Assembly: GCA_963731735.1 (NCBI GenBank)
Contig: CAVSWO010000002.1
Span: 192,875 to 256,874, forward strand
From: Candidatus Kerfeldbacteria bacterium
GTDB taxonomy: Bacteria; Patescibacteriota; Patescibacteriia; SBBC01; CAIJZX01
Direction of reading: 5' to 3'
Length of the DNA stretch: 64,000 nucleotides
Shown here: positions 5,688 through 52,847 of the stretch, one piece after another
Position numbering within the stretch: the stretch's first letter is position 1
How the letters are laid out: each line of letters starts with the position of its first letter
Notes under the pieces: model-generated
Database searches by the model: none
What the model saw: the letters and a program-made list of their open reading frames with translations, nothing else
Told to the model about the DNA's origin: nothing
Translations under genes and position numbers: made by a program

Positions 5688-5688
5688 A

Positions 5689-28468: not shown

Positions 28469-29413
28469 ATGCCGGAAACCAAAACCAATGAACTGACCCG
28501 CTGGAAGAATCGTTTTTTAAGTTACATTGAGGTTGAGCGCAACAAAAGCCTGTTAACCCGACGGAATTACGATCACTACCTGACCACCTTTATCACGGTT
28601 ACGCGCCTGACCCGCCCCGAACAAATTTCCCTGGATGACATCCGGGATTTCCGCCTTTGGCTCAATCGCCAAATTAGCGCCCGCGGTAACAGCCTGAAAA
28701 AATCTACCCAGAACTACTATTTGATCGCCTTGCGATCGTTCTTAAAGTATTTGGCCAAGCAGGATGTCAAAGCTATGGCCGCCGAGAAGATCGAACTCGC
28801 GAAAACCAGCGACCGGCAAGTCAGTTTTTTAGAGGGGGATGATCTCGAGCGATTTTTGAACGCCCCAATGCAGCCGCACGCGCAAAGCTTAGTGGCCATC
28901 CGCGATAAAGCGATTCTGGAGTTACTGTTCTCTTCCGGCCTTCGAGTTTCCGAATTAGCGAATCTCAAACAGGACAACCTTAATTTAAAAAAAGACGAAT
29001 TCACCATCCGCGGCAAAGGCGATAAACTCCGGGTGGTGTTCTTATCGTCAGCAGCCAAAAAATGGATCGCCCTATATCTGCAAAAACGGCATGATGGATC
29101 CCCGTATCTATTCGTCCGTCATGATCGGGCCGGTAAACGCACCAGCGAATCAAAGCCGCTCACGCCACGTTCAATCCAACGTCTGGTTGATCACTACACC
29201 AAAGCGGCTGGAATTACAAAAAAGGTTACTCCCCATACGTTGCGACACTCCTTCGCAACTGATCTCCTGATGAACGGAGCTGACATTCGAAGCGTTCAGG
29301 CCATGCTCGGGCACGCCTCGATCCAAACCACCCAGATCTACACCCACGTAACCAATCCACAACTCCGTGAGATTTACAAAAAGCATCACGGTAAGGGTCG
29401 GGCAGAAAACTAA
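28469..29413 (+). CDS. XerC/XerD-family tyrosine site-specific recombinase
   Basis: N-terminal SAM-like domain and C-terminal catalytic domain with R...HxxR...Y (HTLRHSFATDLLMNGADIRSVQAMLGHASIQTTQIYTHV). Confidence 0.85.
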   Translation: MPETKTNELTRWKNRFLSYIEVERNKSLLTRRNYDHYLTTFITVTRLTRPEQISLDDIRDFRLWLNRQISARGNSLKKSTQNYYLIALRSFLKYLAKQDVKAMAAEKIELAKTSDRQVSFLEGDDLERFLNAPMQPHAQSLVAIRDKAILELLFSSGLRVSELANLKQDNLNLKKDEFTIRGKGDKLRVVFLSSAAKKWIALYLQKRHDGSPYLFVRHDRAGKRTSESKPLTPRSIQRLVDHYTKAAGITKKVTPHTLRHSFATDLLMNGADIRSVQAMLGHASIQTTQIYTHVTNPQLREIYKKHHGKGRAEN

Positions 29414-30359: not shown

Positions 30360-30435
30360 TGGAGGCCCCAAGAGGAATCGAACCTCTATAACCGGCTTAG
30401 AAGTCCGGTGTTCTATCCGTTGAACTATGGGGCCA
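30360..30435 (-). tRNA. tRNA-Arg (anticodon TCT), CCA encoded
   Basis: Cloverleaf folded by hand: acceptor GGCCCCA/TGGGGCC, D stem GTTC/GAAC, anticodon loop CTTCTAA, T arm AGAGG-TTCGATT-CCTCT. Position 31/39 is an A-G mismatch. Confidence 0.7.
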
Positions 30436-31223: not shown

Positions 31224-31298
31224 TGGGGTGGCCAACGGGGATCGAACCCGTGATAAAGGCTCCACAAGCCTCTGTGTTACCACTACACCATGGCCACC
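31224..31298 (-). tRNA. tRNA-His (anticodon GTG) with encoded G-1 and CCA
   Basis: Hand-folded. G-1 pairs with C73. Anticodon loop TTGTGGA. Closely resembles E. coli hisR. Confidence 0.8.
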
Positions 31299-36906: not shown

Positions 36907-37671
36907 ATGGAATCATCCAAACCCACGAGTATCTGGCAAGGCACCACGCCACAGCTCGCTTTTATTTTTGGTGTCATCGCCGGTATCGCCGTCACTGTTT
37001 TAGTGATCATGGTGATCGGTACGCCGATTAAGCGGACCACCACTTCGGCCTCCGGCACGCCCACCGTCACAAACACTAATACCACCGCCGACAGCGGCAG
37101 CCAGACGTATGGTGACGTCAAAGCGGTGTCAGACAGTGACTATATCCGGGGCGCAACCAACCCAAAAGTTACACTGGTTGAATATTCCGATTATGAATGC
37201 CCGTACTGCAAGAGTTTCCAACCGACCCTGCAGCGCATCATGCAAGACTACTCGAATGATGTGGCTTGGGTCTATCGCCAGTTCCCATTAAGCTTCCACG
37301 CCAACGCCCAAAAAGAATCCGAAGCTGGCCTCTGCGTCGGTAAACTCGGCGGTAATGACGCCTTCTGGAAATTCAGCGACACGATTTTCGAACGGACCAC
37401 GTCAAACGGCTATGGATTCTCGTTAGATAATCTCGGGCCGCTAGCCAAAGAGGTTGGCGTCGACCAGGCCAAGTTTCAATCTTGTCTCGATGGCGGAGAT
37501 ATGACATCGCAGGTTGCGGCTGATACGGCTGACGGAACCGGAGCCGGCGCGAGCGGCACCCCGACCACCTTCATTGTTGATCAAAACGGCAAAACGCTCA
37601 GTGTGATTCCCGGCGCCCTGCCGTACGATCAAGTCAAAGCACAACTCGATCAGGCTTTAGCCTCAATCTAG
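36907..37671 (+). CDS. Membrane-anchored DsbA-like thiol:disulfide oxidoreductase (thioredoxin fold, CPYC active site)
   Basis: TM anchor, then TLVEYSDYECPYCKSF and a DsbA-type helical insertion. Confidence 0.85.
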   Translation: MESSKPTSIWQGTTPQLAFIFGVIAGIAVTVLVIMVIGTPIKRTTTSASGTPTVTNTNTTADSGSQTYGDVKAVSDSDYIRGATNPKVTLVEYSDYECPYCKSFQPTLQRIMQDYSNDVAWVYRQFPLSFHANAQKESEAGLCVGKLGGNDAFWKFSDTIFERTTSNGYGFSLDNLGPLAKEVGVDQAKFQSCLDGGDMTSQVAADTADGTGAGASGTPTTFIVDQNGKTLSVIPGALPYDQVKAQLDQALASI

Positions 37672-37680
37672 CTAGCCGAA

Positions 37681-37716
37681 AAAACTCCTCGCTCAACCCG
37701 GGGAGTTTTTATTTTT
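37681..37716. terminator. Bidirectional intrinsic terminator between convergent genes (AAAACTCC...GGAGTTTT flanked by A- and T-tracts)
   Basis: Read directly between the dsbA-like stop (37671) and the minus-strand gene stop (37709). Confidence 0.6.
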
Positions 37717-37972
37717 CGTCCGAAGTAAACCAGGATCGCAAGCGTGTCGATACGATCACGATTGCGATAGTCACCAGGATGGCATATCCAAATTTATACA
37801 ACACGCCATGGCCTTGTGGGAAAAGCGTTTCGAAAAAGCTCCGGACGGCATCATTCCAAGCCAAAGCGGCGACCAGTCCGAGGCCGCTCAAGAGCAGGGT
37901 GATGGTTTGCTGCCGGACTTCGGATCGCAGCGAAGCCGGTGATTTTTTTGTTTGGGTGTTGGGAGTGGGCAT
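37709..37972 (-). CDS. Small 2-TM membrane protein (DUF5654-like)
   Basis: 87-aa ORF with two hydrophobic helices. Convergent with the dsbA-like gene. Confidence 0.5.
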   Translation of the reverse strand: MPTPNTQTKKSPASLRSEVRQQTITLLLSGLGLVAALAWNDAVRSFFETLFPQGHGVLYKFGYAILVTIAIVIVSTRLRSWFTSDEK

Positions 37973-38048
37973 ACATCTAGTCTACGCCGTGATTGACGCA
38001 CCGTCAAAGCGGTGGTAGGCTGAAAGCATCAGTCACTCATGTTGAGCT

Positions 38049-39110
38049 ATGGCGACAAACGAAAAATCAAAATTCATCGATAAAATTTTTCAAACCGCGG
38101 TTGAATCCAGCGCCTCCGACGTACACTTGGTGGCCGGTTTACCGCCGATGCTCCGCATCAACGGTGAGTTAAAACCCCTGAAAGATTACAAGGCCATGAC
38201 GGCTCACGATACGGCCGAGGCCTGTTATTCGATTCTGACCGACCAACAACGGGAGATTTACGATACCGAACGCGAACTCGACCTGGGATACGAACTGGCC
38301 GGACTCTCTCGGTTCCGCGTCAACTTGCATTGGGAAAAGAACAATGCCGGCATGGTGGCTCGCGTCATTTCGAATAAAATCCCGTCGATGGAAGACCTCG
38401 GGATGCCGCCGATCACGTACGACCTGATCCGCCTCAAACAGGGATTGATTCTCGTTACCGGTCCAACCGGAATGGGAAAATCAACCACCCTGGCGGCCAT
38501 GATCGAATTGGTCAATCGCGAACGAAGCGCGAATATCATCACCCTGGAAGATCCGATCGAATTCGTTTATGAGCCAAAAAAGTCGATTATCAAGCAGCGG
38601 CAGCTCGGCACCGACATGATGTCGTTCGCGCAGGGGTTGAAACACGTACTCCGTCAAGATCCGAACGTGATTTTGGTTGGTGAAATGCGTGACTTGGAAA
38701 CTATCGCTTCGACGATTACCTTAGCCGAAACCGGGCACCTGGTCCTCGCTACCCTCCATACGCTCAACGCCGCCCAAACCGTTGATCGTATCATTGATGT
38801 CTTCCCGCCCTATCAACAATCTCAAGTCCGTCTGCAAATTTCACTATTCTTAAAGGGCATTATTTCACAGCAGCTTTTGCCGTCAGCCCAGGGCGGCCGA
38901 GTAGCTTCGCGCGAAGTGCTGATAAACACCCCGGCGATCGCCAACCTCATCCGCGAAAATAAGATCGCTCAGGTGAAAACCGCCATTCAAACCAGCGCCG
39001 AAGAGGGTATGTTCACCATGGATCAAAATATCAAGAAGATGTTTCTGGATGGAGTCATTTCTGAAGAAACAGCCTTGGCGTACATGACAAACCCGAGCGA
39101 ATTGAAATAG
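38049..39110 (+). CDS. pilT: Type IV pilus retraction ATPase PilT
   Basis: Walker A GPTGMGKST, Asp box, Walker B ILVGEMRD, His box and the PilT-specific AIRNLIRE-like motif (AIANLIREN). Confidence 0.9.
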   Translation: MATNEKSKFIDKIFQTAVESSASDVHLVAGLPPMLRINGELKPLKDYKAMTAHDTAEACYSILTDQQREIYDTERELDLGYELAGLSRFRVNLHWEKNNAGMVARVISNKIPSMEDLGMPPITYDLIRLKQGLILVTGPTGMGKSTTLAAMIELVNRERSANIITLEDPIEFVYEPKKSIIKQRQLGTDMMSFAQGLKHVLRQDPNVILVGEMRDLETIASTITLAETGHLVLATLHTLNAAQTVDRIIDVFPPYQQSQVRLQISLFLKGIISQQLLPSAQGGRVASREVLINTPAIANLIRENKIAQVKTAIQTSAEEGMFTMDQNIKKMFLDGVISEETALAYMTNPSELK

Positions 39111-39128
39111 TTTTTCAAAGGACGTTTC

Positions 39129-39160
39129 GGCCGGCCGCCCTTGCGGCCGGCGGTTTGTAT
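39129..39160 (+). terminator. GC-rich hairpin (GGCCGGCCGC-cctt-GCGGCCGGC) followed by TTTGTAT. A second hairpin follows (AACCGC...GCGGTT).
   Basis: Read directly downstream of the pilT stop. Confidence 0.45.
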
Positions 39161-39196
39161 AAAAAAACCGCAGGGCATCCCGCGGTTGTCTGGTTT

Positions 39197-39463
39197 TTAA
39201 ACCGTTTTTCGTAAAGTGCGCACGACATGCATAAATGGCCACCCGCCGAGCATCGCCAGCAAGCCAGCCCCGACCCAAACCAGCGGATCCGCCGGCCAAC
39301 TGTAGCAAAGCCACAGCGCCCAGAACCAGAACAAACAGGCAACTCCCAGACTCGCCAGCCAGTAGCGTTGCATAGATTGAGACAGAACGAACCACCACCC
39401 GACAACTTGCAGCCAAAGATCGCCGACCGGTCGCACGACCACCTCCGAATAAACGTACACCAC
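39197..39463 (-). CDS. Small Trp-rich membrane protein, hypothetical
   Basis: 88-aa ORF with 2-3 TM helices. Several overlapping alternative ORFs exist here, so confidence is low. Confidence 0.35.
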   Translation of the reverse strand: MVYVYSEVVVRPVGDLWLQVVGWWFVLSQSMQRYWLASLGVACLFWFWALWLCYSWPADPLVWVGAGLLAMLGGWPFMHVVRTLRKTV

Positions 39464-39512
39464 AAGACAGCCGGGGAAAACCGACTCAGTCTATCTGACC
39501 GCCCGATGTTTG

Positions 39513-39959
39513 TCAACTATGAAACCAATCGGGTTCGGGAAAGCGCAATTCCCATTGTTCCCAGGGCTGAACATTCATATCAATGTAGCGCAGCCAGGTT
39601 GGAGTAATTCGGAAGAAAATACTGCCCTCAACGAGTTGGTCGGTCATGCTCGGATGTTTCTTCGCAAACAAGGCTTTGGCTTGGTTGACTTCCTCGCCAC
39701 CCAGGGGTTCGGCATAACCGTGATACTGAACCGCGCGCAAATCTTTGGTCATGGCCAGGGCGACTTTGGGGTTCTCCACGAGATTCTCGTATTTTTTGGT
39801 CGGATGTGTCCCGAATAGCAAAGTTAAATTATCGACTTCGGCAAACAAAATCACCGCCGCCGCGGGATTGCCTTTCTTATCAGCGGTGGCAATCACTGCG
39901 GTCGGGTGTTCCGACAGGAAGGTCAGGAGGAGTTGGCGACGTTGGCTGGCTTGATCCAT
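39513..39959 (-). CDS. Pyridoxamine 5'-phosphate oxidase-like FMN-binding split-barrel protein
   Basis: Track ORF 39513..40280 trimmed to the Met (MDQASQRRQLL...) because the upstream part runs across tRNA-Arg and its repeat. PNPOx-like motifs (VIATADKKGNPAAAVILFAEVD, FGTHPTKKYENL). Confidence 0.65.
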   Translation of the reverse strand: MDQASQRRQLLLTFLSEHPTAVIATADKKGNPAAAVILFAEVDNLTLLFGTHPTKKYENLVENPKVALAMTKDLRAVQYHGYAEPLGGEEVNQAKALFAKKHPSMTDQLVEGSIFFRITPTWLRYIDMNVQPWEQWELRFPEPDWFHS

Positions 39960-39988
39960 ATTTCGTAGTCTAGCAAAAATGCCGCCAG

Positions 39989-40017
39989 TTGTCAGATACG
40001 ACCAAATGTGGTAGGTT
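39989..40017 (+). promoter_or_regulatory. Promoter for tRNA-Arg(TCG): TTGTCA-17 bp-TAGGTT
   Basis: Read directly. The -10 box ends about 11 nt before the tRNA 5' end. Confidence 0.4.
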
Positions 40018-40028
40018 CTAGCCTGCTT

Positions 40029-40105
40029 GCGCCCGTAGCTCAGTGGATTAGAGCATTTGGCTTCGGACCAAAGGGTCGGGGGTTCGAGTCCCTCCGGGCG
40101 CACCA
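40029..40105 (+). tRNA. tRNA-Arg (anticodon TCG), CCA encoded
   Basis: Hand-folded: acceptor GCGCCCG/CGGGCGC, D stem GCTC/GAGC, anticodon stem TTTGG/CCAAA with loop CTTCGGA, T arm GGGGG-TTCGAGT-CCCTC. Confidence 0.8.
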
Positions 40106-40236
40106 AATAGGTCGCGAAGCGAATCATAAACATTACCCGAAGAGGGACGAGAAGGGTTGCAGCGCACGAGTCGAGCCGTGCTCGACGAAGCTCGCGATCG
40201 ACGAGTTGCCAGCGGCAAGTCGTCGCAACCCAGGAC

Positions 40237-40258
40237 TCGAGTCCCTCCGGGCGCACCA
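40237..40258 (+). repeat. Exact 22-nt direct repeat (tcgagtccctccgggcgcacca) of the tRNA-Arg(TCG) 3' end (40084-40105), 131 bp downstream
   Basis: Both copies read directly. The intervening 131 bp is GC-rich with nested hairpins (GGGTTGC...GCAACCC, TCGAGC-cgt-GCTCGA). Confidence 0.85.
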
Positions 40259-40291
40259 CTGAACTTTGTTTCACCGACAATTTAATTCACT

Positions 40292-40747
40292 ATGTCATCA
40301 CATATGACGCACAAACCTTTGGCGGTCATGATGCTATATTTGTCCGGACTCGGAGCTATCCTGTCCGGCTACTTATCGTATCAGACACTTTTTCAAACTC
40401 TCGGCTGCGGGCAGTCCTTGATTACCTGCGGCGGAGACCCGGTCCGATTTTTTGGGATTCCGCAATGCGTACTCGGATTCGTGGCTTTCGTAGCGGTCTT
40501 CCTGGTGGCCGGCTTGCTGATCAAATCTTCCGCCCCAAAAAAGTTACTGAATATCCAGTTTTGGTTGAGTCTAGCCGGAACCCTGTTTGCCGGTGGGTTG
40601 TCGTACTATGAACTTTGGATCAAGCTCCCGGCGCCGACAGTCATGCCGGCTTGTGTGTATGGATTCTTCCTGTTTATCGGTGCTGGGCTGGCAGCCTGGT
40701 TGGCGCGGCGCGCACAGCCGGTCCAACCTTCAGCCAGACTAGTCTGA
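40292..40747 (+). CDS. Small 4-TM Cys-containing membrane protein, possibly VKOR/DsbB-like thiol-disulfide oxidoreductase
   Basis: 151-aa ORF. Periplasmic-loop Cys pair CGQSLITC and further conserved-looking Cys (IPQC, PAC). The functional assignment is tentative. Confidence 0.45.
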   Translation: MSSHMTHKPLAVMMLYLSGLGAILSGYLSYQTLFQTLGCGQSLITCGGDPVRFFGIPQCVLGFVAFVAVFLVAGLLIKSSAPKKLLNIQFWLSLAGTLFAGGLSYYELWIKLPAPTVMPACVYGFFLFIGAGLAAWLARRAQPVQPSARLV

Positions 40748-40814
40748 ATCTTGTTTTCCGGCTCTACCTATGGTAGCCTTCGTGCGAAACCACTCGTCTT
40801 TGTGATGCAAAAAT

Positions 40815-40890
40815 CGGGGCGTGGCGCAGTTGGTAGCGCGCCTGCTTTGGGAGCAGGAGGTCGCTGGTTCGAGTCCAGTCGCCCCGACCA
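40815..40890 (+). tRNA. tRNA-Pro (anticodon TGG), CCA encoded
   Basis: Hand-folded: acceptor CGGGGCG/CGCCCCG, anticodon stem CCTGC/GCAGG with loop TTTGGGA, T arm GCTGG-TTCGAGT-CCAGT. Confidence 0.8.
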
Positions 40891-40906
40891 AATACGTTTA
40901 TAACGC

Positions 40907-40932
40907 GCCACGCCTGCTCTGCAGCAGGCGTG
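40907..40932 (-). terminator. Perfect 11-bp hairpin (CCACGCCTGCT-ctgc-AGCAGGCGTGG) downstream of the minus-strand DUF378 gene. Weak U-tract.
   Basis: Inverted repeat read directly. Confidence 0.35.
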
Positions 40933-40959
40933 GATGTCATTCGAAAAAACTGATCGCGA

Positions 40960-41208
40960 TTACACGGTCGGTTGGTTCGGCATTGAAGGCGCAGCCGGTG
41001 CTTTCGAGCCACCACCCATGGTGAAGGCGCGAACGAGCGACCACAGCGCGGCTAAGCCGACGATGTCGTAGACGATACGAGCGAGGGTTGAGCCTTCGCC
41101 AAAGATCGAGTCGACCAAATTATATTGGAAGAAACCAACGAGACCCCAGTTGAGGCCACCGATGATGATGAGGATCATAACGATCCAGTCCATAGCGTTC
41201 ATTTTCAC
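40960..41208 (-). CDS. DUF378-family small membrane protein
   Basis: Signature MxxxDWIVMILIIIGGLNWGLVGFFQYNLV typical of the DUF378 family. Confidence 0.6.
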   Translation of the reverse strand: MKMNAMDWIVMILIIIGGLNWGLVGFFQYNLVDSIFGEGSTLARIVYDIVGLAALWSLVRAFTMGGGSKAPAAPSMPNQPTV

Positions 41209-41300
41209 GTGTTGTCACCCCCTTTCCTTGTTCGCGGATTCTGAACTTCAGTATACCACAAAAGCGGCAAAAACTGCTGTTGAAAAGTTTGTTCCAGAAA

Positions 41301-43037
41301 CTATTGAAGAGGCACGACCGTGCACTTGCCGTCTTGCGAACAGGCTAAGCCTGGCGATGCACCGCTGCCGAAGGTCGCCGCGTAGACGCGGGCTCCGCCA
41401 TTCGGAAAGCTCAAAGTTACCTGATGTTCGCCTGGACTGCCAAAATTTGCGATTTGGTAAATGGTCGGTTCATCAATACTGGCGGCGCTGATCGCATATT
41501 GCGCGCCTGATTGTCCGTCAATCGTTACATTCAGCGGTACGGTGGCCTTGACCGCGCTCATAACCACGTACACCTGTTGTGCTTGAATGTGCAGGTCAAG
41601 ACTCGCCCTTGGCTCGGCCTGACTATATTCGGGTTGCACGGTCCAGGCACCTTGCAGGGTCCAAGCATGCAATGCTAGGTTCGCGTTGGGTGTGTACTCG
41701 TGCAATTGGCCGGTAACTAATCCGTTACCTGGCACGAAGCGTTCAGCTCGGTCGGATCCAAAATAGGTTTCCGGGGTTTGTCCAGCCACATAGGGAACCT
41801 GGGCTGAAGCTAAAACATCGCGACTGACCGCATGACCGGCTTCACGCAGCAACTGCTGTATTGCCTTTTCGGTCGTGTCATACTCACCTTCCCCAAAGTG
41901 CGTATACCGGATATGCCCCCGCGCATCAATCAAATATTCGGCTGGCCAGTAGTGATTTTGGTAGGCCGTCCAAGTTCCGTAATTCGGATCGAGGGCGACC
42001 GGATAGGTAATCTGAAAATCTTTGACGGCTTTTTCAACATTGGCCGGTACTTTTTCAAATTCAAATTCCGGCGTATGAACCGCCAGAATGGTAAATCCCT
42101 GATCATGATAGGTGTCATACCAGGACTGCACATAGGGCAGCGTCCGGATGCAGTTGATGCATGAGTAGGTCCAGAATTTGATGAGCACCACCTGGCCTCG
42201 CAAATCAGCCAAACTGGTCGGTTGGCTATTAATCCAACCGGTGATGCCTGTTAATTCTGGAGCGACGCCCAAATCCTTTAAACTCGAACTATTTTCCGTG
42301 GCGGTTTGGCTGGCAGTATGCAAATCGACCTGATCTTCAAATTTTTGCAAATTCGGCAGCCAGTTTGGGGTGCGTTGGATCAGCCAGCTTTGAAAATTCC
42401 GATCCGAGCCCGTCAGCATCAAAAGCGCCAGACCGATCAATAAAACGCCGAAAATTTGTTGCACCCGATTCAGGCGTCGGTTTAGCCACCGAACCCGATC
42501 CAAAATTCGTTGCCCCAGGGCCGCAATTAAACCCATCGGCAAAGCGGCGCCGATCGCGTAGGCGATCGTGACGGCCGTTAAGCGGCCGTCGACCTGCCCG
42601 GTCTGCGCCGCCGCCACCACGCTGGCTAAAATCGGGCCGGCGCATGGCGTCCAAACCGCGCCCAAGGATATGCCGAGAATAAATCCGCCGGCAAAACCGG
42701 GACGACTGGATTGTCCTGAATGACTGAGCTTGGCGCTCATCCAGCCTTCAAACTTGTCGAGGGCGTTGGGAATCAGGAATAGTATGCCCAGCCCGGCTAA
42801 TACCGCGATGCCGAAATTTCGGGCAAAGTTTGGCGACAGGCCAAGTTGCTGAACGGCCCAGGACAGCGCCAACGTAAATACGGAAAAAGACAGAACCACG
42901 CCCAGGATGATCCCCCAGGGTCGCGCTTTGCCTTGGACCGCACCGCCCGACAAGACAATCGGCAACACCGGCAATATACACGGCGCTAATATCGTTACCA
43001 GGCCGGCCGCGAAGGCAAATAGGAGAATCAACAACAT
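41301..43037 (-). CDS. Fusion protein: CcdA/DsbD-like transmembrane electron-transfer domain plus periplasmic TlpA/ResA-like thioredoxin domain plus C-terminal beta-rich domain
   Basis: CcdA-type motif WTPCAGPILASV in the TM domain. Thioredoxin-fold WTYSCINCIRTLPYVQSWYD...ILAVHTPEFEFEK. Confidence 0.75.
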   Translation of the reverse strand: MLLILLFAFAAGLVTILAPCILPVLPIVLSGGAVQGKARPWGIILGVVLSFSVFTLALSWAVQQLGLSPNFARNFGIAVLAGLGILFLIPNALDKFEGWMSAKLSHSGQSSRPGFAGGFILGISLGAVWTPCAGPILASVVAAAQTGQVDGRLTAVTIAYAIGAALPMGLIAALGQRILDRVRWLNRRLNRVQQIFGVLLIGLALLMLTGSDRNFQSWLIQRTPNWLPNLQKFEDQVDLHTASQTATENSSSLKDLGVAPELTGITGWINSQPTSLADLRGQVVLIKFWTYSCINCIRTLPYVQSWYDTYHDQGFTILAVHTPEFEFEKVPANVEKAVKDFQITYPVALDPNYGTWTAYQNHYWPAEYLIDARGHIRYTHFGEGEYDTTEKAIQQLLREAGHAVSRDVLASAQVPYVAGQTPETYFGSDRAERFVPGNGLVTGQLHEYTPNANLALHAWTLQGAWTVQPEYSQAEPRASLDLHIQAQQVYVVMSAVKATVPLNVTIDGQSGAQYAISAASIDEPTIYQIANFGSPGEHQVTLSFPNGGARVYAATFGSGASPGLACSQDGKCTVVPLQ

Positions 43038-43039
43038 GG

Positions 43040-43570
43040 CTAGATCAATTCTCCCGCGATGGCCGCCGCGTCAGTTGAGCCGCTCCAAAGTTTCATAGTA
43101 TTCCCGGCGCTATCAACTTGCACGAAGGTGTGCTGATACGTAATACCATACCGCTGCTTCAAGGCAGTGGCCGTATCATAATCAACTTTCAGAATCGTCA
43201 GTCCGGCCGGCAAACTCGACAAATGTTGGCGAATGCTCGGTTCAAGCGCCTGGCAAATTGGGCACCAGTCGGCGTGGAAATACAAAACGGTTTGTCCGGG
43301 CTCGCTTTCCGCCTTGGTTAACGCTGCCGGCGTGTACTCCACATATCTGGCCGATGGGAGCGTGGCCGACGTGTCCTGATTGTTTGCGTTCGTCCCTGCG
43401 TGAATATCCGACGGACCGGGATCGACAATATTCTTATCCGACGGCAACTGATACTGGTTAGTGTTTGCATTGTGTTGTGTCGCTGGCCGTTCACGCGTCA
43501 TCCCATAGGCGATGAGACTACCAATCATCAGCACCGCGACAACCAAGGCTATAATGTATTTTGATTTCAT
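43040..43570 (-). CDS. Membrane-anchored thioredoxin-like protein (WCPIC active site)
   Basis: N-terminal TM anchor. VLYFHADWCPICQALEP thioredoxin motif. Confidence 0.75.
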   Translation of the reverse strand: MKSKYIIALVVAVLMIGSLIAYGMTRERPATQHNANTNQYQLPSDKNIVDPGPSDIHAGTNANNQDTSATLPSARYVEYTPAALTKAESEPGQTVLYFHADWCPICQALEPSIRQHLSSLPAGLTILKVDYDTATALKQRYGITYQHTFVQVDSAGNTMKLWSGSTDAAAIAGELI

Positions 43571-47065: not shown

Positions 47066-47878
47066 ATGCCCGACCATACAAAAAATTCTGACTTGCTTGA
47101 TTTATCAACCAAGGTCGCGATTGTCACCGGTGGCGCGGTTGGCATTGGCCAGGGTATCGCGTCACGGCTGGCCGAGGCCGGCGCCCAGGTGGTGATTGCC
47201 GATCGAGATGGTGAGGCCGCCGAGCAAGCTGCAGCCGAATTAACCGCGCGCGGTTGGCAGGCCAAGGCGATCGTGGCCGATGTGGCCGATGAAGCTTCGG
47301 TCAAGAATCTCGTTGATCAAACGGTGGCTACTTTTGGGGAAGTCGATATTTTGGTGAATAATGCCGGCATCTATCCGAATATCATGGTCATGAACATGAC
47401 TCCGGAGGATTTTGATCGCGTGCTGGACGTGAATCTGCGCAGCGTCTTCCTCTGCACCAAAGCCGTAGCTAGCCGGATGATTGAACGGAAGCGAGGCGGA
47501 CGGATCATCAATATCACGTCCATCGACGCGCTGCACCCGTCATCGGCCGGGCTGGCGCACTACGACGCCTCCAAGCATGGCGTCTTCGGGTTTACAAAAA
47601 ACGTCGCGCTCGAACTTGCCCCGCATAAGATTTGGGTTAACGCGGTCGCCCCCGGCGGCATTGCCACTCCCGGCGCTCAGGCCGCGCAAAAAAATATCCA
47701 GGTGCCGAAAGGCGTGGACATGCAAAAAATGTTGGCGGCGTTCATGGCCCGGATTCCGATGGGTCGGATGGGCGAGCCCGATGATATTGGCAAGGCGGTG
47801 TTATTCCTGGCTTCCGATATGTCCTCCTACATGACTGGCACGCAAATCGTGGTTGACGGCGGTGTCCTGCTAAGTTAA
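47066..47878 (+). CDS. Short-chain dehydrogenase/reductase (FabG-like)
   Basis: TGGAVGIGQGIA cofactor motif, NNAG, catalytic YDASK. Confidence 0.85.
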   Translation: MPDHTKNSDLLDLSTKVAIVTGGAVGIGQGIASRLAEAGAQVVIADRDGEAAEQAAAELTARGWQAKAIVADVADEASVKNLVDQTVATFGEVDILVNNAGIYPNIMVMNMTPEDFDRVLDVNLRSVFLCTKAVASRMIERKRGGRIINITSIDALHPSSAGLAHYDASKHGVFGFTKNVALELAPHKIWVNAVAPGGIATPGAQAAQKNIQVPKGVDMQKMLAAFMARIPMGRMGEPDDIGKAVLFLASDMSSYMTGTQIVVDGGVLLS

Positions 47879-47880
47879 GG

Positions 47881-48606
47881 ATGCCGGAATTTTACTTTCC
47901 CCTCAAAGCCCGTCATCAGGTCTGCGAGGGAACAATGGCTTTTGTGTTTGATACGAACGGCCAAAATTTTTCATTTGAGGCTGGACAAAACATTGATGTC
48001 TTCCTACCCGAGGCGCCCGAATCCGGTGCAACCAGCGCGCAGATGCATACCTTCTCGTTCGCCAGCGCACCGCAACATCAAGATTTCTTCATGATCACGA
48101 CGCGGATGCGTGATTCAAAATATAAAAAGACGCTCAAAACGCTACCGCTCGGCACAAAATTGCGGTGCCTCGGACCGAACGGCAATCTGGTCCTGCATGA
48201 GGACTCGAGTAAACCGGCGGTTTTTTTGTCAGGTGGAATTGGTATTACGCCGTTTCGCAGCTTGATTGAGTCCAGCATCCTCGGCAACCTTCCGCACTCG
48301 ATCCATGTATTTTACTCGAATCGTACCATTGAGGTGGCCGCCTTTCATGATGAGTTCGAGCGCTGGGCAACCCAGCATCCGCAGTTTCATTATCATCCAA
48401 CTCTGACCCAAGCCTTGCCAGCCGATTGGAAATATCGCAGCGGAAAAATTGACGCCACTATGATCAGGCAACAATTTGGTGCGCTGAACGATGCTGTGTT
48501 CTATGTCGCCGGACCGGAGGGCATGGTCTCGGCCATGCGATCCCTCTTGATCGACGCGGGAGTCAGTCGTGATGCGATCCGGTTGGAATCGTTCAGCGGA
48601 TATTAA
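47881..48606 (+). CDS. Ferredoxin-NADP+ reductase-like FAD/NAD(P)-binding oxidoreductase (soluble)
   Basis: FAD motif HTFSFASAP (R/HxxS), NAD-binding GGIGITPF. Confidence 0.7.
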   Translation: MPEFYFPLKARHQVCEGTMAFVFDTNGQNFSFEAGQNIDVFLPEAPESGATSAQMHTFSFASAPQHQDFFMITTRMRDSKYKKTLKTLPLGTKLRCLGPNGNLVLHEDSSKPAVFLSGGIGITPFRSLIESSILGNLPHSIHVFYSNRTIEVAAFHDEFERWATQHPQFHYHPTLTQALPADWKYRSGKIDATMIRQQFGALNDAVFYVAGPEGMVSAMRSLLIDAGVSRDAIRLESFSGY

Positions 48607-48666
48607 TTCGGGTTGACAGGAACCGACAAACGATTACAATCAGAATCGGTTCTTTTGTGATGCATT

Positions 48667-48906
48667 GTGTGCCTGATTCCGCGTTGCGGTCCCCCTCACA
48701 CCGGAGGATGTGTGCCGAAATCTGAACGGATTCGGAAAACTCTGACGCTGGCGTCAACGCTCGTTGTAGTCTTTGGTTTCTTTAGCGTGACTGGTGCGTG
48801 CTGGGTCCGTGATCATTTGCACCTGGCCCACACGGCTACCTGTCTATTTTATGGCGGTTTTGGAGCGATGTTGATCGGCTGCGGAACCTGCATTAAATGC
48901 AATTAG
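48667..48906 (+). CDS. Possible small Cys-rich 2-TM protein (C-terminal CGTCIKCN). Weak.
   Basis: 79-aa track ORF in an otherwise empty 300-bp gap. No RBS seen. Confidence 0.25.
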   Translation: MCLIPRCGPPHTGGCVPKSERIRKTLTLASTLVVVFGFFSVTGACWVRDHLHLAHTATCLFYGGFGAMLIGCGTCIKCN

Positions 48907-48993
48907 CCGACCCTGGTGCCATTCCCCGTCTCTTCGAGACGGGGATTTTCCATGAAACAAAGAGTATCATTTTGGCGTACTATACATATACCT

Positions 48994-49509
48994 ATGAAAA
49001 AGTTTCTACTGGCCGGAACGGTGATTGTAGGGTTCATTGTCTACGCCTTGCGACAACAATCGATTCCTCCCGCCATACCGATCGCCAACACGCAAACCAC
49101 CCAATCAATCGACCAACTCCCATCGGCAACCAGCGCCGGCAGTCCAGCGTCCGACACGCCGCCGTCGAATCCATCCGGTTCCGATAATTCTGGGGGGCAG
49201 ATGATGAATGGTCAGGGGATGATGGGCAAGTACCGCGACGGCACCTATACCGGAAACCCGGCTGATGCTTACTACGGCTATATTCAAGTGCAGGTGGCAG
49301 TACAGAATGGTCAAATATCTGATGTTCAATTCCTACGTTATCCAAATGACCGCTCGACCTCAATCGCCATTAACCGCCAAGCTATGCCTTACCTGCGGAC
49401 CGAAGCAATCCAGGCACAAAGCGCCAATGTGAATATTGTTTCCGGCGCAACTGACAGCAGCTTAGCTTTTCGCCAATCAATGCAATCGGCGCTGTCACAG
49501 GCCCAGTAA
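48994..49509 (+). CDS. Exported FMN-binding domain protein (flavinylation substrate type)
   Basis: N-terminal TM/signal (MKKFLLAGTVIVGFIVYAL), then an FMN_bind-like domain (YRDGTYTGNPADAYYGYIQVQVAVQNGQISDVQF...SGATDSS). Start corrected from track ORF 48916. Confidence 0.65.
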   Translation: MKKFLLAGTVIVGFIVYALRQQSIPPAIPIANTQTTQSIDQLPSATSAGSPASDTPPSNPSGSDNSGGQMMNGQGMMGKYRDGTYTGNPADAYYGYIQVQVAVQNGQISDVQFLRYPNDRSTSIAINRQAMPYLRTEAIQAQSANVNIVSGATDSSLAFRQSMQSALSQAQ

Positions 49510-49518
49510 TGTAAACCA

Positions 49519-50253
49519 ATGCGGATTGAGCGCGAGTTGATGGGGATGCCGATCGTGATCGAGGTGTTGGGTTCAAATCCGGCCGCACATATTGCAGCGG
49601 TCTTTGATTTTCTCACCTACGTCGATCAAACGTTTAGTACCTACAAACCCACCAGCGATATCATGCGGTTGAATCGCGGTGAATTATCGTTCGCTCAGGC
49701 GAATCCGGATGTGCGGGAAATTTTTTCGCTGGCCGATCGGACGAAGCGGGAGACTGACGGCTATTTTGATATCCGTCACCGAGGCCAGTTTGACCCGTCG
49801 GGGGTCGTTAAAGGTTGGGCGATTGAACGGGCCGGGCAGATGCTTCGCGCCGCTGGGTATCAAAATTTCTTTGTCGAGGCCGGCGGCGACATCGTCGCCG
49901 CCGGTCAGAACGCCTTGGGCCAAGCCTGGTCGGTTGGTATCCGCAATCCCTTTCATCCAGGCGAGATTGTCAAAGTCTTGCGAATTTCCGACGGGGCCGT
50001 TGCCACTTCCGGCACGACTGAACGCGGGCAGCACATATACAACCCGCACCAGCCGGGACAGGCCCTGGAAACCATCGTCAGTTTGACCGTGGTTGGTCCG
50101 TCAATCCTGGACGCGGACAGGTTTGCGACCGCGGCTTTCGCCATGGGTTCAAATGGGATACACTTTATTGAGCGGCTGGAAGGCTTTGAGGGATACAGTA
50201 TAGATCGCCACGGCCAAGCTACATTGACGACAAATTTCACTCGATTTCTGTAA
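49519..50253 (+). CDS. apbE: ApbE-family FAD:protein FMN transferase
   Basis: ApbE motifs (DGYFDIRHRGQFDPSGVVKGWAIERA, GDIVAAG, VATSGTTERGQH). Confidence 0.85.
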   Translation: MRIERELMGMPIVIEVLGSNPAAHIAAVFDFLTYVDQTFSTYKPTSDIMRLNRGELSFAQANPDVREIFSLADRTKRETDGYFDIRHRGQFDPSGVVKGWAIERAGQMLRAAGYQNFFVEAGGDIVAAGQNALGQAWSVGIRNPFHPGEIVKVLRISDGAVATSGTTERGQHIYNPHQPGQALETIVSLTVVGPSILDADRFATAAFAMGSNGIHFIERLEGFEGYSIDRHGQATLTTNFTRFL

Positions 50254-50255
50254 TC

Positions 50256-51779
50256 ATGATTTCCGTGCTTGATCGTTTCCTCGACCGAATCACCATGTAC
50301 CGCTTGGTGATCTACGTTTTGTTGGCCTATCTCGGTGCCGCCGCGTCGCTTGGGGTTGTCGGTCAGCTCGCCTTCAGTGGATCGGCCATTATCCTAACCG
50401 CTGGCGCGATTGTTGGATTGGCCTGGATCACGAATCATCTGTTCGCAAAGGTTTATCGGGCGCCGGTCCATAGTGAATCAGCCATCATTACCGGCCTGAT
50501 CTTGGTGCTTATCGTTTCACCCTATCAATCCGGACACGGAATTGGGTTAATCTTTTGGGCGCCGGTTTTGGCCATTGCCGGCAAGTACATCTTGGCCTGG
50601 CATAAACAACATATCTGGAATCCGGCCGCGATCGCGGTTGCGATTACGGCGTTGTTTTTGCAGCAATCTGCCAGTTGGTGGGTCGGAACGAGTACACTGT
50701 TACCGATTGTCGTGATTGGTGGATGGTTGATCGTAAAAAAACAGCGCCGGTGGGAAGTGGTTTGGACCTTCTTTCTGGTGGCCGGGTTGGGGATTGTGGC
50801 GGCCGGCCTAATCCGGCAAACCAGCGTCTGGGAAAGTTTACGGCACCTAGCGCTCAATTCGCCGGCTATCTTTTTTGCCACCATCATGTTGACTGAACCG
50901 CTGACCATGCCTCCCGGCCAACGGCAGCGCATCGCCTATGCCGCAACAATCGGCCTGCTGTTTATTCCGCAACTACATCTTGGCAACACCTATAGTACGC
51001 CCGAATTGGCCCTGGTGCTTGGCAATACGTTGTTTTTCGGACTGGCTGGGCGGGCGCGTTATATCCTGACCCTGACCCAAAAAATTCGGTTAGCCCCGCA
51101 GACGTACGAATTTGTCTTTACTTCGGCTGACCGTCCGGATTGGATCGCCGGACAATATTTTGAATGGACCTTGGGCCATCCGCAATCCGATCAACGCGGA
51201 CAGCGGCGTTATTTTACAGTGGCTTCGTCACCCAGCGAGCCGCACGTTCGTTTAGGGATAAAATTTGCGTCCGAGCGCCTGAGCAGTTTTAAACAATCGA
51301 TGTTAGCGATGCGAGCCGGTGATTCCATCGTTGCCGGTCAACGCGATGGGGATTTTACCTTACCGAAAGATCCAAACCAAAAGCTGGTATTTATTGCCGG
51401 TGGCATCGGCGTTACCCCGTTTCGGAGCATGATTCAGTGGTTGGTTGATCAGCAACAACCTCGCGATATCGCCCTGATCTACGCCGCCAATAGCGTCAAG
51501 GAATTTGTCTATACGAACATCTTTAACCAGGCCGAAACCGCCATTCGGCTCCGAACCTTGTACCTGATCGCGGATCCGAAGCGCGCGCCGGCCAACTGGT
51601 CAGGGTTAACCGGATATTTGACGCCGGAAATTATTCAGCAACAGTTACCGGATTACGCAGAACGCACCTTCTATTTGTCTGGGCCCCAGGCGATGGTCAA
51701 TGCATACGAAGCGGTGTTGAAAAAACTTGATCTGCCACGTCGGCAAATCAAAACTGATTACTTTCCGGGTTTTGCTTAA
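50256..51779 (+). CDS. Membrane-bound oxidoreductase: N-terminal polytopic membrane domain of about 270 aa fused to a C-terminal FNR-like FAD/NAD(P)-binding domain
   Basis: 6-8 TM helices, then RRYFTVASSPSE (RxYS FAD motif) and FIAGGIGVTPFRSM (NAD motif). Confidence 0.75.
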   Translation: MISVLDRFLDRITMYRLVIYVLLAYLGAAASLGVVGQLAFSGSAIILTAGAIVGLAWITNHLFAKVYRAPVHSESAIITGLILVLIVSPYQSGHGIGLIFWAPVLAIAGKYILAWHKQHIWNPAAIAVAITALFLQQSASWWVGTSTLLPIVVIGGWLIVKKQRRWEVVWTFFLVAGLGIVAAGLIRQTSVWESLRHLALNSPAIFFATIMLTEPLTMPPGQRQRIAYAATIGLLFIPQLHLGNTYSTPELALVLGNTLFFGLAGRARYILTLTQKIRLAPQTYEFVFTSADRPDWIAGQYFEWTLGHPQSDQRGQRRYFTVASSPSEPHVRLGIKFASERLSSFKQSMLAMRAGDSIVAGQRDGDFTLPKDPNQKLVFIAGGIGVTPFRSMIQWLVDQQQPRDIALIYAANSVKEFVYTNIFNQAETAIRLRTLYLIADPKRAPANWSGLTGYLTPEIIQQQLPDYAERTFYLSGPQAMVNAYEAVLKKLDLPRRQIKTDYFPGFA

Positions 51780-51804
51780 GCTATCGTCATGATTAACTGA
51801 TGGC

Positions 51805-52143
51805 ATGCACCAAGAGTTGACGAAGCTGAAATGCGTTGCCTGCGCGAATGGGGAACCGCCGTTGAGCGCGGCTGCCATCAAACGTTTTCAACCCCAAGTA
51901 GCTGATTGGAAAGTCCATACGGTTGATGGACACCCGTCGCTTGGAAAAGTATTTCGTTTCAACGATTTTGTCGGCTCGATAGATTTTGTCAACCAGGTCA
52001 AAGATTTGGCCGAAGCCGAAGGGCACCATCCCGATTTGCATATTCATTGGAATACCGTCCGCGTTGAAAATTGGACGCACGCAACCGGTGGCTTGCACCA
52101 AAATGATTTTGTGTTAGCCGCAAAAATCAACCGACTCGTTTAG
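51805..52143 (+). CDS. Pterin-4a-carbinolamine dehydratase (PCD/DCoH)
   Basis: Signature AEAEGHHPDLHIHWNTVRVE. Confidence 0.85.
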   Translation: MHQELTKLKCVACANGEPPLSAAAIKRFQPQVADWKVHTVDGHPSLGKVFRFNDFVGSIDFVNQVKDLAEAEGHHPDLHIHWNTVRVENWTHATGGLHQNDFVLAAKINRLV

Positions 52144-52191
52144 CTGGATTGACAAACTTCTTCGGAAAGCGTACAAAACCGGGTACGCTCA

Positions 52192-52518
52192 TTGCAGATA
52201 TCCGCCCACCGGGAGGTCAGGTTGGAAAAACGTTGGAGAATTCTTCAAGGTCCTAAGGTGGGACCGAATAAACCAGCGGCCATCACCGTCACCGTCTGCA
52301 GCCAAGCCCGCGGCGCCGTTCGGCAGTTTACGATCGAGGTCACCATCTGGCGAACCGCATTAGACCCGAAGGGAAGTTACTACTACACCGGCATCGTACA
52401 GACGAAGCCTCGGACATGGACAACGGTGTATGGTGTTTACGAACAAGGCCGCGGCGCGCTGTATCTTGGAGAAACCCACCGTTCACGCCAGGAGGCAATT
52501 GATGGCGATCGCGCCTGA
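52192..52518 (+). CDS. Hypothetical protein
   Basis: Track ORF. It overlaps the next plus-strand ORF by 17 nt in another frame. No motif. Confidence 0.3.
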   Translation: MQISAHREVRLEKRWRILQGPKVGPNKPAAITVTVCSQARGAVRQFTIEVTIWRTALDPKGSYYYTGIVQTKPRTWTTVYGVYEQGRGALYLGETHRSRQEAIDGDRA

Positions 52519-52780
52519 ACACCTCAAGTTGTCCGTTGAGGATTTTGGCGGGCTGGCTCAGCTGCAAGATCAGATTGATCGGCACCTGTTCCAGTTTAAG
52601 GATATTCGGAAACCGCGTGATCCCTTTACGTGCACCCTGGACCGTTCGTATTCGCCGGCCGTCATCTCGGCCACCCAAGAAATCTACCGTCGCCTGGGCT
52701 GGCAGGTAACCCTCAGTCAATCGCCCCAGTCGGTCCAACTGCTGGTCCGACCCAAGCCGCCGGTGCCTGAAAAAACCTAG
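52502..52780 (+). CDS. Hypothetical protein (start at MAIAPEHL)
   Basis: Track ORF 52430..52780 trimmed. A strong terminator follows it, supporting plus-strand transcription. Confidence 0.4.
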   Translation: MAIAPEHLKLSVEDFGGLAQLQDQIDRHLFQFKDIRKPRDPFTCTLDRSYSPAVISATQEIYRRLGWQVTLSQSPQSVQLLVRPKPPVPEKT

Positions 52781-52793
52781 CTCTGTTTGTACC

Positions 52794-52820
52794 GCCTGTG
52801 CCCCGCACAGGCTTTTTTCT
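52794..52820 (+). terminator. Rho-independent terminator (GCCTGTG-ccccg-CACAGGC followed by TTTTTT)
   Basis: Read directly. Confidence 0.7.
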
Positions 52821-52847
52821 TGCCGATGTTCATGGTATTCTTCATTC

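Follow-up and report, generated by a model that had tools for sequence, protein, structure and literature searches.

Two published studies describe the systems closest to the genes considered here. The architecture was named 'NQR/RNF-like' by Méheust et al. (2021; eLife; PMC8238504), whose passages on it count 127 gene clusters, mainly in Actinobacteria and the candidate phyla radiation (CPR), and propose that electrons pass one way, from NAD(P)H to an FMN outside the cytosol. Huang et al. (2024; PMC10979944), with Ktedonobacter racemifer as the case modelled, describe a two-subunit complex; their AlphaFold-multimer prediction brings together the FMN site on the NqrC-like subunit and the flavin pocket on its NqrB-like partner, and they note that the threonine of NqrB is not conserved. 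Our subject is a cluster of three genes, hereafter the triad, in a stretch of 64,000 nucleotides from a Candidatus Kerfeldbacteria bacterium (the window; contig CAVSWO010000002.1 of assembly GCA_963731735.1, forward-strand positions 192,875 to 256,874). The triad, at 48994-51779 of the window, quite probably encodes the two subunits of a transmembrane electron-transfer complex of NQR/RNF-like type and the flavin transferase that serves it. The domain content, the folds, the sequence motifs, the topology signals and a three-gene synteny conserved in relatives are directly established.

An original prediction, made from the sequence alone, had placed four plus-strand open reading frames (ORFs) here, namely a soluble FNR-like reductase, an exported FMN-binding protein, an ApbE flavin transferase and a membrane protein fused to an FNR-like domain, and Pfam confirms all four with their domains and coordinates (Table 1). 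Its proposal of ApbE-dependent flavinylation that moves electrons across the membrane in a manner related to Rnf and Nqr is borne out in kind by the domains, folds and synteny. What it missed is that the same architecture had already been named and described in the two accounts cited above.

Architecture of the triad and comparison with known systems

The triad has the arrangement by which an NQR/RNF-like system is defined operationally in the description of Méheust et al. (2021). An NqrB/RnfD-like domain is fused to PF00175 and encoded beside apbE and a gene for a membrane-anchored FMN_bind protein, further Nqr or Rnf subunits are lacking, the flavinylated threonine of NqrB/RnfD is absent, and the CPR taxon fits. 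The window protein is set apart by its sequence, since the closest homologue of the fusion in the database searched is 54% identical and none exceeds this value. The homologues share its length and architecture and number more than 5,200 as protein clusters, with at least 445 matches among species-representative genomes, so that the family is far larger than the count in the published passages.

The 507-residue protein joins an RnfD/NqrB-like domain of about ten helices (residues 1 to ~265) to an NqrF/FNR-like FAD and NAD(P)H domain (residues ~268 to 507). Pfam detects NAD_binding_1 (PF00175) in it with an E value of 4e-16. An AlphaFold2 (AF2) model of the full-length protein (pLDDT 90, pTM 0.84) gave FNR-type matches alone in Foldseek, so the N-terminal domain was modelled separately (residues 1-272, pLDDT 92). 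At E < 0.01 among PDB chains this predicted fold matches only RnfD (TM-score 0.68-0.71) and NqrB (0.59-0.64), with urea transporters ranking far below; the only PDB match of the sequence profile of the membrane domain is RnfD (8ahx_D, E = 0.003), with MLTEPLT aligned to IATDPVT. The closest solved relatives of the C-terminal half are the FAD/NAD domains of NqrF (target-normalised TM-score 0.70-0.72) and other FNR-type reductases. The FNR motifs RYFTVAS (318-324), GGIGVTP (382-388) and SGP (475-477) are all present, as is a C-terminal aromatic residue, F506, and across 77 homologues R318-x-F-T321-x-x-S324, G382-G-x-G-x-T-P388 and S475-G-P are invariant or nearly so. The flavinylation motif [ST]G[AS][ST] does not occur in the 507-residue protein and is found only twice, by chance, among the 77 homologues, in agreement with the published loss of the NqrB/RnfD threonine in this family.

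The longest ORF of the FMN-binding subunit spans 48916-49509 (Pfam FMN_bind, E = 4e-7). The real start is probably the ATG at 48994 (MKKFLL..., 171 residues), because relatives begin with MKK and a membrane helix and because a hairpin with a T-run at 48923-48945 sits inside the longer ORF. The protein would then open with an MKK signal anchor and continue through a linker rich in Ser, Thr and Pro to an FMN_bind domain that ends VNIVSGATDSS. The flavinylation motif is VNIVSGAT, and FMN is predicted to be carried by its threonine, Thr153 (codon 49450-49452). Among solved structures the best match is the FMN-binding domain 8p2a_A (E = 1e-10), with the SGAT motifs aligned. The relatives end VD(I/L)(I/V)SGAT, the [ST]G[AS][ST] motif being present in 46 of 47, and the charge bias favours an N-in, C-out arrangement by the positive-inside rule in 43 of 53. 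Some carry a lipobox (L074, VVTGC; L052, LMVGC) and others an apparently cleavable signal peptide (L049, L051 and L071). In view of the N-in signal anchor and of these lipoboxes and signals in relatives, the flavin domain is predicted to be exported and to face outwards.

The transferase scores 143 bits with Pfam ApbE (PF02424), against a cut-off of 25.6, and matches the solved ApbE 5mgy_H (E = 6e-17) in an alignment that shows ~50 residues missing internally and nothing added at the N-terminus. KGWA, ATSG, QHIYNP and DADRFAT each line up with their ApbE counterparts; of these, ATSG, H172 (in QHIYNP) and D198xxxT202 match motifs of 5mgy and 3pnd, and in the ApbE family it is such motifs that bind FAD and Mg2+.

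Relatives were drawn from a scan of one genome per species that gave at least 80 loci, and 81 distinct related loci were compared. The order FMN_bind, ApbE, fusion gene recurs in 56 of the 81, from at least four phyla, with the genes a few nucleotides apart; in the window the gaps are 9 nt and 2 nt, respectively. The conserved unit is thus three genes, not four. Both features on which the original prediction had staked its case, a target motif in the FMN-binding protein and synteny in relatives, are therefore present. The majority of the triad loci come from Patescibacteria, of many classes, and the other carriers include Ktedonobacteria and further Chloroflexota, Spirochaetota, Mesorhizobium, Kaistia and other Alphaproteobacteria, and Actinobacteria (Agreia and Schumannella). 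A second subgroup, found in Saccharibacteria, Uhrbacteria, Agreia and others (Table 1), shares this gene order; its ApbE, of ~290 residues, is more divergent, and its membrane-anchored protein of ~160-210 residues ends (V/I)SGSSLT(P/S)xGF instead of carrying a recognisable FMN_bind domain. Domain-based surveys may miss this subgroup, because Pfam FMN_bind gave no match in the one anchor protein of it that was scanned (L046).

The better known relatives of the system are the Na+-NQR (NqrA-F) and Rnf (RnfA-E and G) complexes. The modelled membrane domain has the RnfD/NqrB fold (TM-score 0.6-0.7), the FAD/NAD domains of NqrF are among the nearest solved relatives of the FNR domain, and covalent attachment of FMN by ApbE to an NqrC/RnfG-type domain, predicted for the window, is common to both. 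The window, however, has parts of only three of the six subunits and lacks NqrD/E or RnfA/E, NqrA, RnfB, RnfC and the Fe-S centres. Its membrane domain is ~80-140 residues shorter than RnfD/NqrB and without a flavinylation motif. Electrons presumably flow outward in one direction instead of along a semicircular path, and there is no sign of ion pumping. No Nqr or Rnf family occurs among the window neighbours (SDR, FNR-like, pterin dehydratase, dCMP deaminase, VTT, CitMHS and CBS). Because the other subunits, an Fe-S centre and a flavinylated RnfD are all absent, this is not a canonical Rnf or NQR complex.

A cytoplasmic FNR-type domain coupled to a membrane conduit and serving an extracytosolic acceptor is also found in the MsrQ-like and PepSY-like NAD-domain fusions and in the ferric reductases of NOX/FRE type. 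Their conduits are di-haem cytochromes, whereas that of the window has the RnfD/NqrB fold and presumably carries flavin; we know of no haem ligand motifs for this fold. The MsrQ-like and PepSY-like systems are often associated with flavinylation and tied to iron uptake through VIT1, according to the passages that treat them (Méheust et al., 2021). The flavin-based extracellular electron transfer (FLEET) system of Listeria (Ndh2, DmkA/B, EetA/B, PplA and FmnA/B) resembles the triad in that an ApbE-type enzyme, FmnB, flavinylates an extracellular FMN_bind protein serving external acceptors, and in that NAD(P)H is the ultimate donor. It differs in its use of a type II NADH dehydrogenase and a quinone pool, and in FmnB being a secreted lipoprotein. 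The triad is not a FLEET system: Ndh2, DmkA/B, EetA/B and PplA were not detected in the cluster, where the sole NCBIfam match to PplA scores 18.5 bits against a cut-off of 325.

Proposed electron path

The direction of flow, the flavins within the membrane domain, the acceptor and the site of flavinylation are what we infer from these features. NAD(P)H would be oxidised at the FAD of the cytoplasmic FNR-like domain of the 507-residue protein, and electrons would then cross the membrane by way of one or more non-covalent flavins presumed to lie in the RnfD/NqrB-like domain. They would reach an FMN held covalently on Thr153 of the membrane-anchored FMN_bind protein, at the outer face. ApbE would attach this FMN, with FAD as the donor. 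The FMN may hand the electrons to an external acceptor, the leading candidate being Fe(III) or another metal and the alternatives soluble oxidants or a partner reductase.

A hint of metal reduction comes from the neighbours of the triad in some relatives, in which an Nramp gene lies 21-136 nt downstream (three loci), VIT1 is nearby (four loci) or a P-type ATPase is found (five loci; Table 1). The most frequent neighbours are two-component systems of OmpR type, with 22 histidine kinase ORFs in about 20 loci and response regulators in 12, and the kinase or regulator directly adjoins the triad in roughly half of those loci. Together, the two-component and metal-transporter neighbours suggest that some members of the family have a metal-related role and are inducible, an extension of the published hint from VIT1.

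Several observations weigh against this interpretation. In the literature we found no experimental study of any NQR/RNF-like member. The Pfam match of the fusion protein to NQR2_RnfD_RnfE (PF03116) is at threshold level, at 27.8 bits against a cut-off of 27.7, so that it is chiefly the predicted fold that argues for homology of the membrane domain. The window shows no acceptor gene adjoining the cassette, and the association with metal transporters covers only about 10 of the 81 loci. Lastly, ApbE has no signal in 58 of the 58 relatives examined and a lipobox in none of them, although the domain it should modify is predicted to be exported.

Patescibacteria are considered fermenters that lack respiratory chains, and a self-contained route from NAD(P)H to the exterior would be among the few ways open to them for disposing of reducing equivalents. 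Alternatively, such a route could serve to reduce metals for uptake. The triad lends itself to direct experiment, with a clear three-gene boundary, a defined target in Thr153 and cultivable carriers (Dictyobacter, Ktedonospora, Mesorhizobium and Agreia).

Flavinylation of a subunit predicted to be exported

The ApbE proteins of the NQR/RNF-like system are uniformly short, about 245-310 residues, and have no membrane helix (58 loci, for example L034, L049, L052 and L071); in L074 an ApbE-like stretch at 6567-6893 did not resolve as a separate ORF. The window ApbE has no signal peptide, lipobox, membrane helix or hydrophobic N-terminus, and an in-frame stop 9 nt ahead of the ATG rules out a longer ORF. 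In most relatives the alignment to the window protein starts at, or a few residues from, the first possible start codon. The signal is missing even at loci whose target subunit is a lipoprotein or has an apparently cleavable signal. A transferase without an export signal, acting on a target that is predicted to be exported, poses a concrete question of biogenesis, namely how extracytosolic flavoproteins are made. The absence of a signal is not mentioned in the passages of the two papers that describe the system, which are likewise silent on the SGSS-type subgroup and on the recurrent Nramp and P-type ATPase neighbours.

Export of ApbE as a readthrough or frameshift fusion with the FMN_bind protein was considered and rejected, since the two genes share a reading frame in the window, whereas of 53 relatives only about 10 have them in the same frame. 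Export of an already flavinylated FMN_bind protein by twin-arginine translocation (Tat) was also rejected as a general mechanism. The SRRGF of the window precedes the likely start and stands 20 residues from the helix, the relatives start MKK with no RR, and the sole RR-type signal among them is that of L071.

The most economical idea is that throughout the system ApbE might flavinylate the C-terminal SGAT of the NqrC-like subunit in the cytoplasm, before that domain crosses the membrane. We put this forward tentatively, as a possibility rather than an expectation. In its favour we count the contrast, at the same loci, between the uniformly signal-less transferases and the lipoprotein or apparently cleavable signals on their presumed target. 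Cytoplasmic ApbE proteins are known only for cytoplasmic targets (PMC12052999). A variant of the idea would have the short ApbE serve the complex through some other cytoplasmic task. If true, cytoplasmic flavinylation would be a way to make extracytosolic covalent flavoproteins without export of FAD, which would fit the reduced genomes of Patescibacteria.

A transferase without export signals at all 58 loci would also suit a complex from which nothing is exported, that is a minimal inward-facing oxidoreductase between NAD(P)H and quinone or another membrane acceptor. Electrons would run from FAD to FMN to the NqrB-like flavin to quinone, as in the last steps of Na+-NQR, with ApbE acting in the compartment of its own target. 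The final flavins and the quinone site of Na+-NQR are indeed on NqrB, and the system also occurs in taxa that make quinones (Mesorhizobium, Ktedonobacteria and Actinobacteria). The loci, however, are mostly those of Patescibacteria, which generally have neither quinone biosynthesis nor respiratory chains, and the N-in signal anchor of FMN_bind, with the lipobox or apparently cleavable signal of some relatives, argues for export. The published multimer model, as its description has it, sets the FMN domain opposite the NAD domain (Huang et al., 2024). We consider inward transfer to quinone unlikely and retain outward transfer to an exported FMN.

Setting of the cassette in the window

The three closest relatives of FNR241, the stand-alone reductase upstream of the triad, that have usable context are L083, L085 and L086, and in each a Pterin_4a gene directly follows the FNR241 homologue. 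The window dehydratase (PCD) is 71% identical to the product of that gene in L083, 66% in L086 and 65% in L085. Starting at CitMHS, L083 has the same gene order as the window (CitMHS 93%, CBS, MGMT-like, SDR, FNR241 64%, PCD 71%, VTT 64%, two unnamed ORFs and NUDIX) but has no triad at this position, and the position of the triad in the window is therefore secondary. The MGMT-like, FNR241, PCD, dCMP deaminase and VTT genes are common to L086 and the window, and the assembly of L086 bears the triad on another contig (L007). Because FNR241 sits directly upstream of PCD in relatives, the simplest reading of the gene order is that ~3.2 kb (48607-51804), holding a promoter-like site, an orphan ORF, a hairpin and the triad, was inserted between the two genes in this lineage. 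Direct or inverted repeats at the borders amount to short matches only (~11-30 nt), none pairing both borders, and the cassette has no compositional anomaly, its GC content and GC content at third codon positions resembling those of its neighbours.

Table 1. Positions of the cassette genes, of neighbouring genes in the window and of the related loci referred to in the text
Feature	Position or loci	Strand	Basis
FMN_bind protein, membrane-anchored (NqrC/RnfG-like, 171 aa)	48994..49509	+	Pfam and relatives
ApbE-type FAD:protein FMN transferase, short (244 aa)	49519..50253	+	Pfam
RnfD/NqrB-like membrane domain and NqrF/FNR-like FAD/NAD(P)H domain, fusion (507 aa)	50256..51779	+	Pfam, AF2
Cassette leader (promoter-like site, orphan ORF, hairpin)	48607..48993	+	Promoter/terminator scan
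FNR241, stand-alone FNR/Fre-like reductase (241 aa), outside the module	47881..48606	+	Pfam, synteny
Pterin-4a-carbinolamine dehydratase (PCD, 112 aa), outside the module by ancestry	51805..52143	+	Pfam
SDR	47066-47878		Pfam
DsbA-like	36907-37671		
VKOR	40292-40747		
DsbD_TM-AhpC/TSA-Thioredoxin_10 fusion (578 aa)	41301-43037	minus	
Thioredoxin	43040-43570	minus	
Second-subgroup loci	L028, L042, L044, L046, L050, L053, L054, L056, L057, L060, L066, L070, L073, L074		
Loci with metal transporter genes beside the triad	L056 and L060 8512-9798; L010; L037 8630-9364; L036, L041, L047		

This arrangement bears on the minimal four-gene form of the original prediction, of which the three-gene unit stands and the membership of the soluble reductase does not. 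As a module of four genes, FNR241 would feed the flavinylated system or receive electrons from it, with the SDR and the pterin dehydratase as accessories. The genes are contiguous on one strand, and since PCD begins only 25 nt after the fusion gene it may be co-transcribed with the triad in this genome. Yet a separate homologue of FNR241, SDR or PCD stands beside the triad at none of the 81 related loci, FNR241 is paired with PCD and not with the triad in its closest relatives, including the colinear L083, and a spacer of 387 nt with a promoter-like site and a hairpin parts it from FMN_bind. FNR241 (FAD_binding_6, E = 1e-4; NAD_binding_1, E = 1.5e-17) also belongs to a family of its own, of ~240-residue proteins (1,371 matches), and it shares no more than 25% identity with the FNR part of the fusion. 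It has HTFSFAS where RxYS would be expected, together with GGIGITP and a C-terminal Tyr. Synteny largely refutes the four-gene module, which we regard as very improbable. The SDR and the pterin dehydratase (Pterin_4a, E = 1e-27) that the prediction had placed nearby are there; a ferredoxin was not found, no Fe-S family matching among the ORFs scanned and no plausible window ORF having a 4Fe-4S cysteine motif.

The SDR, FNR241 and PCD genes (47066-48606 and 51805-52143; L083, L085 and L086) form a conserved unit that is split by the flavinylation cassette. The best NCBIfam match of FNR241 is the reductase half of flavohaemoprotein, and its pairing with PCD suggests, by inference only, a putative pterin-recycling pair of quinonoid dihydropterin reductase and dehydratase. 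Between PCD and the dCMP deaminase gene some 700 nt (52144-52847) hold only ORFs without a family match, on both strands. L083 has no counterpart of this segment and no dCMP deaminase there, the VTT gene directly following its dehydratase gene.

The leader of the cassette opens with a near-consensus promoter-like site (48613-48640, TTGACA-16-TACAAT). The hairpin noted above is of 10 bp, GC-rich, and ends ~50 nt before the FMN_bind start; it could be an attenuator or a leftover terminator. An orphan ORF of 79 residues (48667-48906) is Cys-rich with two hydrophobic stretches. It was considered as a fourth subunit and rejected, having no Pfam match and no homologue in related loci; among 1.8 billion representatives it gave three weak, partial matches to much longer proteins and no real homologue. 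A riboswitch in the 387-nt leader was likewise rejected, with no Rfam match at E <= 1 and an RNA fold z-score of only -2.2.

The original prediction's tie to an adjacent thiol-disulfide machinery, by which the module would feed reducing power to the extracytoplasmic DsbD_TM-AhpC-thioredoxin fusion, thioredoxin, VKOR and DsbA upstream, deserves hardly any credence: these genes do share the window, and flavinylation clusters with DsbD-like proteins are described elsewhere in passages of Méheust et al. (2021), but they lie 5-11 kb away rather than adjacent, the nearest on the opposite strand and separated from the SDR gene by six ORFs and a tRNA-Gly gene, the genes that recur beside the triad in the 81 loci include no Dsb or thioredoxin family, and the triad reached its place in the window by secondary insertion. 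The thiol-disulfide cluster itself (36907-43570) is interspersed with tRNA-Arg and tRNA-Pro genes, and no tie to the cassette was found.

The named relatives of the window PNPase are all Kerfeldbacteria or other Patescibacteria (62-69% identity), which makes assignment of the genome to the CPR reasonable. Several assemblies labelled 'uncultured Gammaproteobacteria' bear the cassette (L007 and L086, both from GCA_964383765.1, and L013, L028, L042, L050, L065 and L081). GCA_964383765.1 keeps the window gene order around FNR241 and PCD at 50-77% protein identity, and the public taxon labels may be wrong. Elsewhere in the window a tyrosine recombinase (28469-29413; Phage_integrase and SAM-like N-terminal domains) lies near tRNA-Arg (30360-30434) and tRNA-His (31224-31297) genes and could be XerC/D or mark the boundary of an integrated element. 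On the minus strand, two very large ORFs (1,369 and 1,836 residues) lie side by side at 1620-11199.

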